From the NCBI GenBank assembly GCA_965204035.1, contig OZ241964.1, positions 1,231,933 to 1,295,932 of the forward strand: a DNA stretch of 64,000 nt, written 5' to 3'. Positions 37,098 through 43,794 of the stretch are shown here, one piece after another. A model generated the notes under the pieces. That model saw nothing but the letters and a program-made list of their open reading frames with translations. It was not told the DNA's origin and searched no databases. How positions within the stretch are numbered: position 1 is the stretch's first letter; each line of letters opens with the position of its first letter. Origin of the DNA: Thermodesulfobacteriota bacterium (GTDB taxonomy: Bacteria; Desulfobacterota_D; UBA1144; Nemesobacterales; Nemesobacteraceae). A program made the position numbers and the translations under genes.

Positions 37098-38984
37098 TCA
37101 ACTGAAATTCTTGCGCATGTGCTCGCTCACCTCATCCCACCTGCCGTAAAGAGCAGAGAGTTTCGCCTCAAGTTCGCCGAGCTGCCTTGTTCTTTCTTTC
37201 CAGTCAGTACCTTGGGGAGAAGTCTCGGGATTCGCAAGAAACCTCTCCACCTTCTCTTTTTCAATTTCACATTCCGATATCCTGCTCTCAAGATCCGAAA
37301 GAGCATTTTCCATCTGTTTTCTCGAAAGAAGCGTCCAGTTCTCCATGTTCTCTATGCCTTTTTCGCGAAGTTCCCTGTAAAGCCGGTTTCGCCGCTCCGC
37401 CTCAAGGGCTTTTGCGGTTTTCTTCCTGGGTTCGTCGTTCTGCATCTCGGCAGGCACCTTTTGGTCATCGGAGTCGCGGGCTTTTTTCTCGAGAAATTCC
37501 GAGTAATTGCCTATAAAGGTCTCGACTCCTCCCCCTTCCACATACCATGTCCTGTTCACGAGGCTGTCAATGAAATACCTGTCGTGGCTTATCAGCAAGA
37601 AGGTGCCGGAATACTCCCCGAGGGCGTGGCGAAGCACTTCCCTTGATGCCATGTCAAGATGATTTGTAGGCTCATCGAGAACCAGGAAATTGGAGCGGGA
37701 GACCAGAATCTTTAGAAGTGAGAGGCGGCTTTTCTCGCCGCCCGAGAGGACCGAGACCTTCTTGGTTATATCGGAAGCGCCGAAAAGAAACGAGCCCAGA
37801 AGCGTTCTTGCCTCGGTCTGGGAAAAAAGAGGATAAGCTCCGATGAACTCTTCGTAAACCGTGTTCCGCGGATTAAGCATCTCGTCCTGGTTCTGCGCGT
37901 AGTAGCCAAGGGTTACGTTGTGGCCTAGGCGGCTTTGGCCGGAGAAGCCCTCCACACCAGCAATCATTTTGCAGAGAGTGGTCTTCCCCTCACCGTTTTT
38001 CCCGGTAACGGCTATCCTGTCTCCTCTTTCCACGCGAAGCGCGGGGGAGTTTTGAAAAACGATATTTCTCGCGCCGCCGGGAGTTTCATACTCCTTTGAG
38101 AAATCGCTTATCTCATAAACCACTCGTCCCGCGCGCTCGGGGGCGGGGAAATCAAACTCAAGGGTTCTTCGGGTCTCCGGAGACGAGGCTTCGGGCTCCA
38201 TTTTCTCAAGCATCTTTATCCTGCTCTGCACCTGCCTTGCCTTTGAAGCCTTGTACCTGAACCGCTCTATGAAACGGCGCTGCGCCCGGAGTTTTCTCTC
38301 CTGGTTTTTGGCAGTCGCCTCGGTGACCGCGGCAATCTGCTCTTTTCTCTCAAGGTAAGAGGAATAATCGCCCCGAAACTCCCTTATCACCCCGCCTTCA
38401 AGCTCCGCTATCGTGTCAACCATGCGGTCAAGGAGATATTTGTCGTGAGATACCAGGACCACGGTTCCGCGGTAGTCCCCAAGGTACCCTTCAAGCCACT
38501 CTATGCTTTTTATGTCAAGATGGTTGGTCGGCTCATCGAGAAGAAGAACCTGGGGTTCCAGAAGAAGTATTCTCGCAAGCTCAACCCGCATTTTCCAGCC
38601 GCCCGAAAGAGAAGAGACCTTATGGGAGAGCTGCTCACCCGTAAAACCCAGTCCGAAAAGGATTTTCTCGGCTTCGTGAACAGGTTTTTCTGAACCGTCC
38701 TCGCCTTCGCCGCGGTCGCCCGCGCGGGCCGCCGAGAGCACCGTAAGATCACCCGTTTCCAGATCCATTATCTGCGGCAGATAGCCCACGGTCAGCGCGG
38801 AGGGAACCGAAGCCTGTCCTTTTTCCGGTTCCATGAGTCCCATCACGATCTCAAGCAGCGTGGTTTTACCCGAGCCGTTCGGACCTACAAGACCGTATTT
38901 TCTTCCCTTTTTTATACCCCACTCAAGGTTTCGGAAAAGTTCCTTGCCGGCGAAGGAATGACATGTGCCTGACAGACTGATCAT
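37098..38984 (-). CDS. ABC-F family ATPase (tandem ABC domains with a C-terminal coiled-coil; EttA/Uup-like translation factor)
   Basis: Two Walker A motifs (GPNGSGKTT, GKNGEGKTT), two LSGG signature motifs, no TM domain, and a charged C-terminal extension. Confidence 0.8.
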   Translation of the reverse strand: MISLSGTCHSFAGKELFRNLEWGIKKGRKYGLVGPNGSGKTTLLEIVMGLMEPEKGQASVPSALTVGYLPQIMDLETGDLTVLSAARAGDRGEGEDGSEKPVHEAEKILFGLGFTGEQLSHKVSSLSGGWKMRVELARILLLEPQVLLLDEPTNHLDIKSIEWLEGYLGDYRGTVVLVSHDKYLLDRMVDTIAELEGGVIREFRGDYSSYLERKEQIAAVTEATAKNQERKLRAQRRFIERFRYKASKARQVQSRIKMLEKMEPEASSPETRRTLEFDFPAPERAGRVVYEISDFSKEYETPGGARNIVFQNSPALRVERGDRIAVTGKNGEGKTTLCKMIAGVEGFSGQSRLGHNVTLGYYAQNQDEMLNPRNTVYEEFIGAYPLFSQTEARTLLGSFLFGASDITKKVSVLSGGEKSRLSLLKILVSRSNFLVLDEPTNHLDMASREVLRHALGEYSGTFLLISHDRYFIDSLVNRTWYVEGGGVETFIGNYSEFLEKKARDSDDQKVPAEMQNDEPRKKTAKALEAERRNRLYRELREKGIENMENWTLLSRKQMENALSDLESRISECEIEKEKVERFLANPETSPQGTDWKERTRQLGELEAKLSALYGRWDEVSEHMRKNFS

Positions 38985-39036
38985 CTCAACAGAAATAAAA
39001 AAACCTGATGCTATTTTTCAGCGATATCAACCCTGT
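38984..39036. repeat. Left copy of a ~50-bp imperfect direct repeat flanking the low-GC R-M island
   Basis: CTCAACAGAAATAAAAAAACCTGATGCTATTTTTCAGCGATATCAACCCT aligns (~85% identity) with CTCGACAAAAATAAAAAGAAACCTGATACTATTTCCCGGCGATACCCT at 42531-42580. Confidence 0.6.
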
Positions 39037-39107
39037 TCCCCGGCTGCAAGTATGGAAAAAACCTGAGTCAGAATCCAGCAACTTAATTGTGGATATGTCA
39101 GCAAGAA

Positions 39108-39371
39108 TCATGAAGGCAATCCGGTATCATCATCGTATAGGAAGTTATCGGCTTCTGCTGCGGCAACACCGTCTAGACGCTTGGTCTTGGACCCTGCTGC
39201 TATCCTTTGAATTGCGGACAGTTTTTCGGCAGGGCTTTTCTTTCCGGCCAGAAGCGGCCTTATTTCAGCCACGGGCCTGCCGTGCTTCGTAAGAATTACC
39301 TCTTCACCTGCCAAGGCCGCATTTACTAGTGCGGACAATTTCGCCTTCGCTTCACTAATAGCTATTTTCAT
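39108..39371 (-). CDS. Phd/YefM-family antitoxin-like protein with no intact partner toxin
   Basis: MKIAISEAKAKLSALVNAALAGEEVILTKHGRPVAEIRP is a Phd pattern. Start reassigned to the internal ATG at 39371. A 41-codon ORF (38986-39111) overlaps its stop as ATGA but consists largely of the direct-repeat sequence. Confidence 0.6.
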   Translation of the reverse strand: MKIAISEAKAKLSALVNAALAGEEVILTKHGRPVAEIRPLLAGKKSPAEKLSAIQRIAAGSKTKRLDGVAAAEADNFLYDDDTGLPS

Positions 39372-39617
39372 TATATACCTCTGTATATGTGGGATTTTAA
39401 CTGTTGCTTGCAATCCCACATGTTAGAACAAAAAAATTATCTTTTGGACTAAAAGTGCGGTTTCTTGAATAAGGGATGGAATTTTAAATCTGCATCTTGA
39501 ACAATTATCCACATAAGAAGTATATAGCCCATAAAAGTGGAATCCAATTCGAGGAAAGTTCTAAGAAGCACTAACCTTAATATTGAAGGTGAGTAACTGT
39601 GGTTATGTGTTATCTAG

Positions 39618-41141
39618 TTAACCTTTAGATTGTAATCTCAATGGAGCAAAGAAATGTTCAACCCATTCGGGAAGTGATTCCGTCTCTTTCACGCATCTCA
39701 CTGCTTCGGTAATTTTTTCAGTTGACATCAAAGAGAGAAAAGCCGGTGTTGGTACCAAGGCTCTGTTCAGGTCATTGGGTTCAAATTTGTCTAGAGAGTC
39801 ACCATATTTACGCATTGAAAGCGAAATAATTTCCCTTCCGGCTTGCGACAAAAAATAGAGAAACAGGTGTTCCACATAGCCTAAACCAAACAAATTGGGC
39901 TGAAACCCATGATAACAAGTCAGATTTAGTGCTCTGGTTCTGTTTAATATGATTTTGTATGCTCCACGGGAAAATACACCAAACAAAAGAGGGGATGGGC
40001 TTCTTCTCTCCGTCTTGTACCAAGGTTCTCTATTTTTCGTCAGGAAGCGCTCATGATAATTCTTGCTTTCTCCAAAACTGATGTATTCCTCGACACCCTT
40101 AGAGAGCTTTCCATTAACGGAGAAAAGATAAACAGGCTTATCCAAAGTAGCTAGATCTTCAAAATCGGAATCTTCAAAGACAGATTTTCTGATCTGCGAG
40201 CTCTTGGTAATACAAGGAATGCACTCCGTTTCAAGGTCAATGCTTTTTGCTTCTGCATTCGTAGGTTTCAGGACGAAGAACTCATTCGCCCCGGTGGCGA
40301 TTCCTCGACTGAACCTACCAAAATATTCAAGTGTTGTTGTTCGACTGCCGTCAACTTCAAACGATTTTTTCTGGAAATAAGGCAGCCATTTCTCTTTCGC
40401 ATCAAGTTGATTAAGGGAAATTTCAGAGACAGCCTCAAGCGTTTCGAATACTAATAGTTCATCAAGAGTTTTGATGTTGAAGAATTTTACCGAAGAATGC
40501 CGGGCTGCTTTGTCGTATAAGATTATCCCAACGGATGTTGTAACGTCTGGGAAGATATTTTTCTCGCAGTCAAAGCTTAGAATTCCGTAAAGATGTCCCG
40601 CTTCAGCAAGTCTTTGTTTTATCATGGTGCCGTAGCCGGTATTCAGGAATTCAAGAGGCATTATGTAGGCTAAACGACCGCAGTCAGTCAGTTCTGAAAG
40701 AGATTTTAAGAGAAAAGCAGAAGCGATATTGGTGTAACCAGAAATTCTGATTCCAAGATGGTTTTCAAATTCCTGAAAAACCAAGTCTCTGTTCAAAAAT
40801 TTCTGGAAGCGCATGTAGGGTGGATTACAGACAATACACTCGTGTTTCATATTCCAAGAGCGCAAATAATCCGCAACAAAAACAAAGTCAGATGGTTTGC
40901 CCTTATTAAGTTCCCAAAACTCAAGTATTCTGGAATCTATTTCACATGCCGTGAATTTAACTTCGGGCCGATCATTTACAGCATCATAAAACGCACCTAA
41001 GCCGAACGCAGGATCAAAAAGAGATTTTGTTCCCGAATCCAGCACCCAGTTAACCATAAAAGCCGCAACCTCACTGTGTGTAAAAAACTGCCCGAACTCC
41101 TTGCGGTGCTCGCCACCTACTTTCTCATGGTAATCAAGCAT
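39618..41141 (-). CDS. gamma-class N6-adenine DNA methyltransferase (Eco57I/TaqI-like motif order X-I-IV) with a C-terminal target-recognition region
   Basis: FGQFFTHSEV (motif X), DPAFGLGAF (motif I, AdoMet binding), CNPPY (motif IV). ~40% GC. Overlaps the upstream REase gene by 8 nt. Confidence 0.8.
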   Translation of the reverse strand: MLDYHEKVGGEHRKEFGQFFTHSEVAAFMVNWVLDSGTKSLFDPAFGLGAFYDAVNDRPEVKFTACEIDSRILEFWELNKGKPSDFVFVADYLRSWNMKHECIVCNPPYMRFQKFLNRDLVFQEFENHLGIRISGYTNIASAFLLKSLSELTDCGRLAYIMPLEFLNTGYGTMIKQRLAEAGHLYGILSFDCEKNIFPDVTTSVGIILYDKAARHSSVKFFNIKTLDELLVFETLEAVSEISLNQLDAKEKWLPYFQKKSFEVDGSRTTTLEYFGRFSRGIATGANEFFVLKPTNAEAKSIDLETECIPCITKSSQIRKSVFEDSDFEDLATLDKPVYLFSVNGKLSKGVEEYISFGESKNYHERFLTKNREPWYKTERRSPSPLLFGVFSRGAYKIILNRTRALNLTCYHGFQPNLFGLGYVEHLFLYFLSQAGREIISLSMRKYGDSLDKFEPNDLNRALVPTPAFLSLMSTEKITEAVRCVKETESLPEWVEHFFAPLRLQSKG

Positions 41142-42198
41142 CTTTAATTATTTCCTGAGAAAAAACTTCGGAATCTAGATATCCACGTCCTTCTTTGAAC
41201 GTTACGTAGAAGAGCAGTCTCCCGCGATTAAGGATCTTCAACTTGGAATAATGTTTAGGCATATCAATACGTCCCAATACTTCTTTACCTACCCGAACAT
41301 TAATTTTTATCGTGGTTTTTCTCTGATTCTTTTCATCTTTCTCAACAGAGAAGAGAGCCCCCTCGTTTTGGGGATCGGAACTGATCGTAAGAATATCCTT
41401 AAAGGGAATTATATAAGCCTTATCAAAAAACACCTGAAGATAAAAATGCCTTACACCAAAATTTTGTATCCAGCGGTTCACGAGTGCCAAATCTTCAAGC
41501 TTAGGAGTAATGCTCAAATAGTCTCTTTTATGTAACACTTTTATTTGCTCTTTCAGCAACTTCAGTAATTGGCTTATACGTTTCAAATCTTCTGACGAAG
41601 ACCATGACCTTGCGCGGAAGTCAAGTTCACAAAAAGTATCGTCCGTTGCAAACTTAATCAAATTATGCAGTTGGGGGCTTTTCTCAAGAAGAAGACCTGA
41701 CAGTGGTTCTTTCATAAGTTCTTTCTGAATACCGCGGAATTCCTTTTTTGCCTTGCGAACCCGGTCATCCATGAAGGAAGAATATTTGTTTACAAGAAAA
41801 CTGCTAGACCGAATCTCAATAGCTGCCACCGCTTTCTGGACAATGTCATCGCCGAGACTTGAGGGATCCATACCAATCAAGTCGGACCGCCTAAAAATCA
41901 AAAGATCTGGTTTCTTCCCTGTAACGTTTAACTCGTCCTGATATTTTGAGTAAAATTCCTCAAAATCCGGGTCACCGGCCGCAATATTTTCCCTTCTCCC
42001 GTAATTTACTGCACAGTAATCAATGGAGTTTTCGTTTATGGCGTTTAATACTATCTGCTCAGCCCAATCGCCCTGTTCTCTATTGGTGAGGAAATTCGAA
42101 CTAGCCAGCGTTGGTGCTCTCCCACTCATCTGAATATCCGTATCTATATCAAATGGAAGTGAGGCAATTAAGGATGCGATTGTTTCTTTGTATTTCAT
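41134..42198 (-). CDS. Putative type II restriction endonuclease (partner of the downstream MTase)
   Basis: 354 aa AT-rich ORF translationally coupled to the MTase. Possible PD-(D/E)xK-like region (KKPDLLIF...AAIEIRSS). Assignment rests mainly on operon context. Confidence 0.45.
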   Translation of the reverse strand: MKYKETIASLIASLPFDIDTDIQMSGRAPTLASSNFLTNREQGDWAEQIVLNAINENSIDYCAVNYGRRENIAAGDPDFEEFYSKYQDELNVTGKKPDLLIFRRSDLIGMDPSSLGDDIVQKAVAAIEIRSSSFLVNKYSSFMDDRVRKAKKEFRGIQKELMKEPLSGLLLEKSPQLHNLIKFATDDTFCELDFRARSWSSSEDLKRISQLLKLLKEQIKVLHKRDYLSITPKLEDLALVNRWIQNFGVRHFYLQVFFDKAYIIPFKDILTISSDPQNEGALFSVEKDEKNQRKTTIKINVRVGKEVLGRIDMPKHYSKLKILNRGRLLFYVTFKEGRGYLDSEVFSQEIIKDA

Positions 42199-42530
42199 TA
42201 CGACTTCCAGTACCGTGTATTTATTTACCTACCATCTTTGCCTTGTCAAAAATTTAGACACCCGAGAACCGACCCAGTCAGAATAGATCACCGTTCCGTT
42301 TTTTGCAAAGCCATTACTTAAGAATACAAACCCTTCCCTGTTGTTGGGTTTATATGTCACCGTATGTGGCAATTGCATTTTTCTGCCGTTAAGACAATTT
42401 GCTCTTGATATTGCTTCTCTCTTTCCCCTATCCTAGCATCTAATCAGGCAGTGTATCCAGAGCTATGGAACTCAGGGTATAGGAAATTCCCATCCGGGTT
42501 CATTCGAATGCTTGCCTAAAAAAACTCCAT

Positions 42531-42580
42531 CTCGACAAAAATAAAAAGAAACCTGATACTATTTCCCGGCGATACCCTCT
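42531..42580. repeat. Right copy of the ~50-bp imperfect direct repeat flanking the R-M island
   Basis: See the left copy at 38984-39036. Confidence 0.6.
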
Positions 42581-42600
42581 TTGCTCGCCGGTCGCGGATA

Positions 42601-43794
42601 ATGAAGGTACGAAAAAAGCTATCCAAAAAATCAACCGCATTCCAGATCTGCCATTCGATAACGGAAGTCGAAAAAAAAGAATACGACTCCATCCAGCCTG
42701 ATAACAACCCCTTTTTCGAGTTTGATTTTCTCTTCGCTCTCGAGAAATCCGGATGCGTGGGTCCCGGCACCGGATGGGAGCCGCGCCATCTTCTGCTGCG
42801 CGAGGGGAAAAAGCTCGTCGGGGCGGTTACGTTCTATCTGAAGACCGATTCCTACGGCGAGTACATATTCGACTGGCAGTGGGCGCGGGCATATCAGGAC
42901 GCGGGGCTGAGATACTATCCCAAGGCGGTCGCAGGGGTGCCGTTTACCCCGACAACCGGCCCGAGAATAATCGTTCGCGAAGACTACGATTACGAGACGT
43001 GCGCGCGGGAACTCGCAAAGAAACTGGTTGAGATATGTTCTCTTAAGAGCCTCTCTTCAATACATTTTCTGTTCGTAACAGAAGAGGAACAGGAACTGCT
43101 CTCTCACTGCGGATTCCTCTCTAGACTCACCCACCAGTACCACTGGCATAACTCGGGTTATCTCCGTTTCGATGACTTTCTCGCAGACCTCCGCTCCGGA
43201 AGAAGAAAGCAGATAAGGAAGGAAAAACGCCGCCTCGGCGATCTGGGCGTTGAGATCTCGGTGCTTGAGAAAGAACAGATACAGCGCGAGCACATAGACT
43301 TAATCTGGGAATTCTATGTGAATACTAATTCAAGAAAATGGGGAAACGCCTACCTTAACAGGGAGTTTTTCGACCTGATGTTCGAGACGTACAGGGAAAA
43401 AACCGTGCTTGTGATCGCGAAGATGGATGGCCATCCGGTAGGCGGCACAATCAACTTCAGAAAAGGCGACAAGCTCTACGGCAGGTACTGGGGATGCAGC
43501 ATCGAGGTGCCGTACCTTCACTTTGAGTGCTGCTACTACAGACCGATAGAGTTTGCCATAGACAACGGAATAAATGTCTTCGAGGCCGGAGCTCAGGGCG
43601 AGCACAAGTTCCTCCGCGGTTTTGAAGCGGTACCGGTCTACAGTTCCCACCTGTTTTTCAATCACGGGGCGCAGAGATCCATAGACAACTTCCTTCGGGG
43701 GGAAAGACCCTACATGCGCTCGCTTATCTCAGAGTACAACACACACTCCCCGCTTAAGCGGGTCCGCGGTGGCAAACCGGAAAAAATCGTATAG
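42601..43794 (+). CDS. GNAT-fold acyltransferase of the FemAB-like/COG3146 family
   Basis: 397 aa. The C-terminal half has an acyl-CoA N-acyltransferase pattern (VGGTINFRKGDKLYGRYWGC...EAGAQGEHK). Family assignment by inference. Confidence 0.5.
   Translation: MKVRKKLSKKSTAFQICHSITEVEKKEYDSIQPDNNPFFEFDFLFALEKSGCVGPGTGWEPRHLLLREGKKLVGAVTFYLKTDSYGEYIFDWQWARAYQDAGLRYYPKAVAGVPFTPTTGPRIIVREDYDYETCARELAKKLVEICSLKSLSSIHFLFVTEEEQELLSHCGFLSRLTHQYHWHNSGYLRFDDFLADLRSGRRKQIRKEKRRLGDLGVEISVLEKEQIQREHIDLIWEFYVNTNSRKWGNAYLNREFFDLMFETYREKTVLVIAKMDGHPVGGTINFRKGDKLYGRYWGCSIEVPYLHFECCYYRPIEFAIDNGINVFEAGAQGEHKFLRGFEAVPVYSSHLFFNHGAQRSIDNFLRGERPYMRSLISEYNTHSPLKRVRGGKPEKIV

Follow-up and report, generated by a model that had tools for sequence, protein, structure and literature searches.

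A probable horizontally acquired AccI-family restriction-modification operon beside an older orphan phd gene in a polymorphic insertion site between ABC-F and FemAB-like genes

We analyzed a 64,000-nucleotide stretch of DNA (the window) from contig OZ241964.1 of a Thermodesulfobacteriota bacterium, focusing on the site between two divergent chromosomal genes where a restriction-modification (R-M) operon lies next to a small antitoxin gene. The gene to the left of the site (37098-38984, minus strand) encodes an ABC-F ATPase of 628 amino acids (aa) with the Pfam domains ABC_tran, ABC_tran_Xtn and ABC_tran_CTD. The gene to the right (42601-43794, plus strand) encodes a FemAB_like protein of the GNAT fold (PF04339, 4.7e-142), hereafter Fem. 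Both are conserved chromosomal flanks: Fem has orthologues at 80 loci, and in 25 related genomes it is adjoined by an ABC-F gene whose product is 85-97% identical at the aa level. Four open reading frames (ORFs), all on the minus strand, are located between them, namely a 41-codon ORF, a Phd/YefM-type antitoxin gene (phd), a methyltransferase (MTase) gene and a restriction endonuclease (REase) gene. A sequence-only reading of the window had described this arrangement, and its coordinates, the 8-nt overlap of the REase and MTase genes and the ATGA overlap of phd with the 41-codon ORF are all borne out.

The REase gene (41134-42198, minus strand) encodes a protein of 354 aa, which had been taken for a putative restriction enzyme. 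It can be assigned to the AccI family of Type II enzymes by a full-length profile match to PF09545 (RE_AccI, 1.2e-105, residues 1-345; 354 bits against a cut-off of 22) and is also recognized by the PADLOC model REase_II (4e-95). We found 2261 homologues of this protein. All alignment positions at which 26 family members do not vary, PD98 and E128-I-R130 among them, are retained in it. The MTase gene (39618-41141, minus strand) encodes a gamma-class N6-adenine DNA methyltransferase of 507 aa with the Pfam domains N6_Mtase, Eco57I and M_Eco57I_C and a PADLOC match to MTase_II (7e-91). Motif I of the protein (DPAFGLG) is at residue 43 and motif IV (NPPY) follows at residue 106, as in the gamma class; domains and motif order thus agree with the class proposed from the letters of the DNA. 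The two genes are co-oriented with the REase gene first, both frames are intact, and they overlap at 41134-41141. Sequence searches of the PDB with the REase and with the MTase returned no match.

Upstream of the REase gene lies a non-coding leader (42199-42468), presumed to be the promoter region of the R-M operon, and a tblastn search of the 330-bp leader for a remnant of a beta-class MTase gave no significant match. A 49-aa ORF upstream of the REase gene matches no family. No R-M controller (C) gene of the Xre type, with its helix-turn-helix (HTH) domain, is present near the REase gene; the sole small gene is that of the Phd family, which lacks HTH_3 and lies downstream of the MTase gene.

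The R-M genes are part of a segment of about 3.09 kb (39383-42468) that differs in composition from its surroundings. The GC content is 40.4% across 39383-42527 and 51.8% in the remainder of the window, and at third codon positions (GC3) it is 40% in the REase and MTase genes and 60-65% in the flanking genes. The contrast noted earlier therefore stands for the R-M part, at about 40%, while the figure of about 57% given for the chromosome does not, the host being at 51-52%. The phd gene, at 50.4%, is host-like. No R-M genes were found in any of 80 related loci, and this absence together with the shift in GC and GC3 indicates that the R-M DNA is of foreign origin. Among related loci the segment is matched in only one, a contig labelled L081 that we describe below; the non-coding ends of the island, compared with 88 loci and with the rest of the window, likewise showed homology to L081 alone. 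Within the window no mobility gene or tRNA is present beside the island. An Rfam scan of 38800-42800 gave no match, and exact-protein look-ups for Fem and the REase returned no record.

The antitoxin gene (39108-39371, minus strand) encodes an 87-aa protein of the Phd/YefM family (PF02604, 38.0 bits against a cut-off of 29.8; TIGR01552, 36 bits against 20.8). The 41-codon ORF that overlaps it (38986-39111, minus strand) is a remnant of vapC, the gene of a PIN-domain toxin. Its first 11 or so codons (39079-39111, MILADISTI...) match the start of an intact vapC in a related genome (L007, MIVVDTSAI...), and the homology at the DNA level covers about 33 nt, after which the frame runs through spacer sequence. 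No further vapC-like sequence was found in the window. The statement that this antitoxin is not accompanied by an intact toxin is thus upheld, with only about 11 toxin codons left downstream of phd.

From ABC-F through phd the window can be aligned collinearly with L001, the closest related genome, and this homology stops at 39382, 11-15 nt upstream of the phd start codon. In genomes that carry phd without R-M genes, phd is preceded by a 178-bp upstream region; here this region is replaced by R-M DNA and the phd ribosome-binding site alone remains. Since the native upstream region is gone, any expression of phd must now come by read-through from the MTase gene or from the AT-rich, 246-nt gap that separates the two genes. 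Promoter and terminator scans gave chance-level counts, with nothing convincing between the MTase gene and phd. At the junction of the island and phd there is an inverted repeat of 10 bp with a 15-nt loop (39387-39421, minus strand), whose stem is present in both the minimum free energy and the centroid folds. The stem lacks a following T-run and was not among the terminators called by the scan; the element might act as a weak terminator or as an operator-like hairpin.

Two imperfect direct repeats bracket the phd, MTase and REase genes. Local alignment of 38982-39028 with 42528-42576 gives a score of 53 over 47 columns with about 83-85% identity, and this score was reached by none of 1000 shuffles (shuffle maximum 29), which confirms the repeats and the identity of about 85% reported for them. 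We mapped both copies onto the single-copy spacer of a genome with an empty site as reference. The first letters of each are a CAT, corresponding to the start codon of ABC-F. The left repeat unit (38920-39047) consists of codons 1-21 of the functional ABC-F gene and spacer positions 1-68; its spacer part (38982-39047) is 75% identical to the empty-site reference and has as its orthologue the one spacer of genomes that bear phd and lack R-M genes, and window positions 38900-39382 are 94% identical to L001. The right copy contains the complete 70-bp ABC-F/Fem spacer (42528-42600), which is 95-96% identical to empty-site genomes; identity to the reference is 96% when spacer positions 1-106 (42528-42633) are mapped. 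The two copies therefore represent different spacer lineages, the left one of the phd-lineage type and the right one of the empty-site type. Conservation of the right spacer part presumably reflects its service to Fem.

It is probable that the right copy continues leftward for about 60 nt, as a remnant of the ABC-F 5' coding end. This decayed duplicate (ABC-F', 42469-42527) lies collinear with the right spacer copy, and the 59 nt left of the CAT of that copy align collinearly with the first 21 or so ABC-F codons. The global alignment score is 14, a value reached in 9 of 5000 shuffles, whose scores were -11 +/- 7; none of 82 control windows taken from the island scored above 7. The duplicated unit would thus be about 130 bp, comprising the ABC-F 5' end and the spacer, with the ABC-F' part decayed; the repeat length is 47-66 nt, or about 128 nt when the decayed part is counted. 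A candidate remnant of the Fem 5' end inside the left spacer copy was dropped, the alignment being not significant. We also observed an extended -10-like element in both spacer copies (39005-39015 and 42553-42563; TGATGCTAT / TGATACTAT), directed on the plus strand toward Fem; in the left copy it would read antisense into vapC'-phd. The reverse complement of this element (TAGTAT/TAGCAT) could serve ABC-F, in which case the spacer would be a compact bidirectional promoter.

We examined the state of this site in related genomes by a protein search with Fem, which yielded the 80 loci, all from species-representative genomes. The near relatives among them are metagenome-assembled genomes of Candidatus (Ca.) Dadabacteria, which carry the label Thermodesulfobacteriota at NCBI. 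ABC-F and Fem are adjacent in 25 of the 80 loci, and the site between them varies. Eight genomes (L002, L003, L004, L008, L012, L013, L023, L024) have an empty site with a single spacer of 70-71 bp, 95-96% identical to the right repeat copy, and distant loci (69-71% aa identity) also have a spacer of 70-71 bp. The expectation that an empty site would show one repeat copy between the ABC-F and GNAT genes is thus supported in eight relatives. In 13 further genomes (L001, L005, L006, L010, L011, L014-L019, L026, L029) the order is ABC-F, spacer, vapC', phd, the 178-bp region and Fem, and there are no R-M genes. These phd-only genomes carry spacer positions 1-68/69 beside ABC-F and 56/57-76 beside Fem, so that the two parts overlap by about 12 bp (CCGGTTGC). 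L001, the closest genome, is 96% identical at the aa level in both flanks and belongs to this group. Two metagenome contigs likewise bear phd without R-M genes: L087, which has the closest phd allele (98%), and L088, an additional relative from a sponge metagenome.

One more genome, L007, carries phd followed by an intact PIN toxin of 131 aa (PF01850, 4e-13; L007:9192-9880). This is the sole intact toxin among 15 phd-bearing loci, and it brings to 14 the related species that have phd at this site without R-M genes. Its ABC-F-side spacer is shortened and can barely be aligned with the 70-bp spacer. A third kind of cargo is found in L045, a more distant relative whose flanks are 76-77% identical (aa): a minus-strand gene for a 171-aa staphylococcal-nuclease-like protein with a hydrophobic N-terminus (PF00565, 1e-16; L045:9197-9712), with a spacer copy of the empty type on the Fem side. 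A second spacer duplication in L045 was considered and dropped, its score being reached by 51 of 1000 shuffles.

The phd gene is intact in all 15 sequences examined, and its median ratio of nonsynonymous to synonymous divergence (dN/dS) is 0.17 (64 pairs), compared with 0.11 for ABC-F and Fem. Because it is intact throughout and has a low dN/dS, phd is taken to be maintained by selection, and this holds even where both toxin and R-M genes are missing. Between lineages the synonymous divergence (dS) of phd reaches 1.1-1.2, which is 2-3 times that of ABC-F and Fem (0.3-0.5) in the same genome pairs (the window and L001-L029), and this suggests that phd alleles have been exchanged or are older than their flanks.

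The only second copy of the island that we identified is on L081, a Logan assembly contig from a near-identical strain, in the same place beside Fem and ClpS. The flank shared by L081 and the window is 95-100% identical at the nucleotide level and the island about 83%, with 86% aa identity for the REase, 84% for the MTase and 59-65% nucleotide identity for the leader upstream of the REase gene. Correspondingly, dS is 0.63 for the REase gene and 0.86 for the MTase gene, against 0.11 for Fem and 0.05 for ClpS. The two island alleles thus diverged long before their hosts did, which suggests that island alleles have been exchanged through recombination in the flanking DNA. The dN/dS values for the same comparison are 0.11 (REase) and 0.09 (MTase), which argues for purifying selection on both genes and for their being functional; together with the dS values, it marks the island as long-lived. 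About 120 bp beside the right spacer copy (window 42405-42527, including ABC-F') is missing from the L081 island.

Beyond this allele, the next relatives of the REase are 74-75% identical and are encoded at unrelated loci. The order REase then MTase was found in all five homologous loci inspected. In three loci (L083:7108-10560, L084:5201-8584 and L086:2316-5820) the layout comprises three genes, the first of which encodes an additional MTase of the beta class (N6_N4) and adjoins the REase gene on its upstream side. In another (L082:8001-11760) the AccI-family pair adjoins an rve-family integrase/transposase gene, and a GmrSD gene (Type IV restriction) is a few kb away. One 709-aa protein, P0248, contains both MTase domains and an RE_AccI domain and may be a fused MTase-REase variant or an annotation run-through. 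Although more than 2000 homologues are known from genomes and metagenomes, tblastn with the REase as query matched nothing among 72,556 plasmid and 50,697 phage records, and no vector was thus identified. Nor did the MTase have a relative among the JGI metagenome contigs that we scanned with it.

Taken together, these data make it likely that the locus carries an intact, horizontally acquired AccI-family Type IIP R-M operon in a polymorphic ABC-F/FemAB-like insertion site, and that phd is an older and independent resident. Comparison of the genomes shows the following history. The ancestral site is a single 70-bp spacer. In an older event a phd-vapC cassette was inserted near the Fem end of this spacer, giving the short overlap of the two spacer parts, and all but about 11 codons of vapC were later deleted; the orphan phd that remained is kept under purifying selection in many species. 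A later arrival was the R-M DNA, joined on one side 11-15 nt upstream of phd and followed on the other by ABC-F' and then by a spacer copy of the empty-site type; the island junctions are at about 39383 on the left and about 42468 on the right, and homology to empty-site genomes begins at 42528. Since the two spacer copies are of different types, at least one further recombination step is needed. Most likely, the island first entered an empty-site relative and duplicated a target of about 130 bp there (the ABC-F 5' end and the spacer), and was then moved into a phd-bearing chromosome by homologous recombination in Fem and the spacer on one side and illegitimate joining just upstream of phd on the other. 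This transfer would have deleted the phd promoter region.

The left repeat, on this evidence, is the original spacer of the phd-bearing lineage and was not made by integration of phd and the R-M genes, because phd-only genomes have the same left part and the same junction. The repeats had been interpreted as a duplication of the ancestral intergenic region during integration of the island. We agree that both are copies of a single 70-bp spacer, and we do not retain their origin in a joint integration of phd and the R-M genes, the left copy being common to genomes that lack the latter.

Several observations weigh against this account of a mobile, active R-M island. The left copy does not abut the R-M insert, vapC'-phd (about 340 nt) lying between it and the MTase gene, so that a textbook target duplication is not cleanly represented. 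The statistics for the ABC-F' extension of the right repeat are modest, the two-step history is one that we infer, and no relative was found to carry the island in an empty-type site. The L081 contig ends 130 nt past the MTase gene, which places its left junction beyond the contig end. As to the enzymes, a fold search with the AlphaFold model of the REase (pLDDT 83.5) found no significant nuclease match in the PDB; the best neighbor was the PD-(D/E)XK resolvase Hjc, with a weak score (E = 0.5), and we therefore call the protein a nuclease on the basis of its family. The specificity and activity of the pair are predicted. The window contains 30 GTMKAC sites where 37 +/- 6 are expected, that is, no depletion, although the absence of avoidance is uninformative if acquisition was recent.

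If the pair acts as its family suggests, the MTase would methylate adenine in the recognition site, GTMKAC if AccI-like, and the REase would cut unmethylated sites of incoming DNA. Like other Type II pairs, it may also stabilize itself by killing cells that lose it.

A different history, in which the R-M genes are old residents of the clade that were repeatedly deleted, with the 70-bp sites as scars of recombination between spacer copies, seems to us unlikely. It would fit the dS of 0.6-0.9 between island alleles in near-identical host flanks, and the heavy decay of ABC-F' also suggests an old duplication; moreover, direct repeats would favor clean excision. However, the island is found in none of the 80 species-representative loci, including the distant ones that share the same spacer, and its GC3 is still 20-25 points under that of the host, which speaks against very long residence. 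The phd-only genomes also retain the 178-bp phd promoter region, so they are not simple deletion derivatives.

The orphan Phd has been retained under purifying selection in 14 or more Dadabacteria species since its PIN toxin was lost. It is rather doubtful, though conceivable, that it has a role independent of the toxin, whether in anti-addiction immunity to vapBC elements that enter the cell or in transcriptional regulation, that the gene has been rewired here onto the R-M transcript, and that the spacer serves as an integrase-free, self-duplicating site which captures selfish or defense genes repeatedly. Were such rewiring true, the supply of antitoxin would hang on R-M expression.

We regard as very improbable the view that phd and the two R-M genes constitute one composite island, integrated as a unit with duplication of the spacer and with Phd as a controller or anti-addiction element. 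The three genes are indeed collinear on the minus strand between the spacer copies, and phd has lost its native promoter region and lies downstream of the MTase gene, at the 246-nt distance given above, so co-transcription is possible. This view is largely refuted by the identical position of phd and the identical spacer/vapC' junction in the 13 genomes and two contigs without R-M genes. In addition, the GC content of phd is that of the host, its true partner, the PIN toxin, is intact in L007, and it is under purifying selection in genomes that lack R-M genes. Furthermore, Phd has no HTH controller features and is encoded downstream, not upstream, of the R-M genes. The inclusion of phd among the genes of the island, as first proposed, thus has to be given up, as does the suggestion that it is an anti-addiction or controller element rather than a remnant of a toxin-antitoxin (TA) module. 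On the comparative evidence, phd is neither part of the R-M island nor its controller; the two appear to be neighbors by accident, linked at most by read-through from the MTase gene. Finally, the idea that the repeats are a chance similarity or convergent promoter motifs, with no duplication involved, can draw on the A/T-rich nature of the copies and their identity of only about 80-85% but is hardly credible and is refuted by the score of 53 above all 1000 shuffles, by the match of the right copy to the empty-site spacer (96% over 106 nt) and of the left copy to L001 (94%), and by the CAT of the ABC-F start codon that opens both.

The preferred interpretation, an acquired R-M operon beside an older phd, involves known kinds of elements. 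The AccI R-M system (Type IIP, GT^MKAC) is matched here by an REase that covers PF09545 over its full length and by a co-oriented, Eco57I-like gamma MTase with an M_Eco57I_C-type domain, the recognition sequence and the methylated base being predicted from the family. Unlike AccI relatives among L083-L086, the locus has no extra beta-class N6_N4 MTase. The phd gene resembles Phd/YefM-VapC (PIN) modules in its Phd/YefM N-terminal domain, its ATGA overlap with the toxin frame and the intact pair in L007, and it differs from an intact module in that the toxin is cut to about 11 codons here and in 13 related species and in that its native promoter is replaced here. The site itself is similar to the hot spots at which defense and selfish genes integrate, since the spacer may hold nothing, phd-vapC, phd alone, phd with R-M genes or a nuclease-like gene. 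In contrast to typical hot spots, it operates on the scale of single genes and has neither an integrase nor a tRNA anchor.

Type II R-M pairs that move without dedicated mobility genes, generate long target duplications and are maintained at one chromosomal site as diverged alleles are known from Helicobacter, Neisseria and others, and insertion of R-M genes with long target duplication was reportedly described by Nobusato in 2000. Such insertion with long target duplication is a published class, defined by REase and MTase genes within an insert of less than 20 kb, no mobility genes, and direct repeats of more than 30 bp that are single-copy at a related empty site (Furuta et al. 2010, PMC2853133). 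The present locus shares with this class an REase and MTase gene within a segment of less than 20 kb, the lack of integrase, transposase and tRNA genes, and repeats of more than 30 bp that are single at the empty site. It differs in that the left repeat is split from the R-M genes by the older vapC'-phd and is orthologous to the spacer of genomes without R-M genes.

We conclude that this appears to be an ordinary mobile defense island, composed of an AccI-family R-M system with mobility of the long-target-duplication type and set beside the orphan antitoxin of a decayed TA module, and that it opens no new question. It does provide a caution for annotation, namely that selfish genes sharing bracketing repeats need not be one element. 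The same behavior of R-M genes that is known from other bacteria is now seen in Ca. Dadabacteria, an uncultured phylum that has been studied little and has relatives in sponge metagenomes, and for this lineage the analysis provides a predicted methylation motif of the GTMKAC type and a small insertion hot spot that may be of use as a strain marker.

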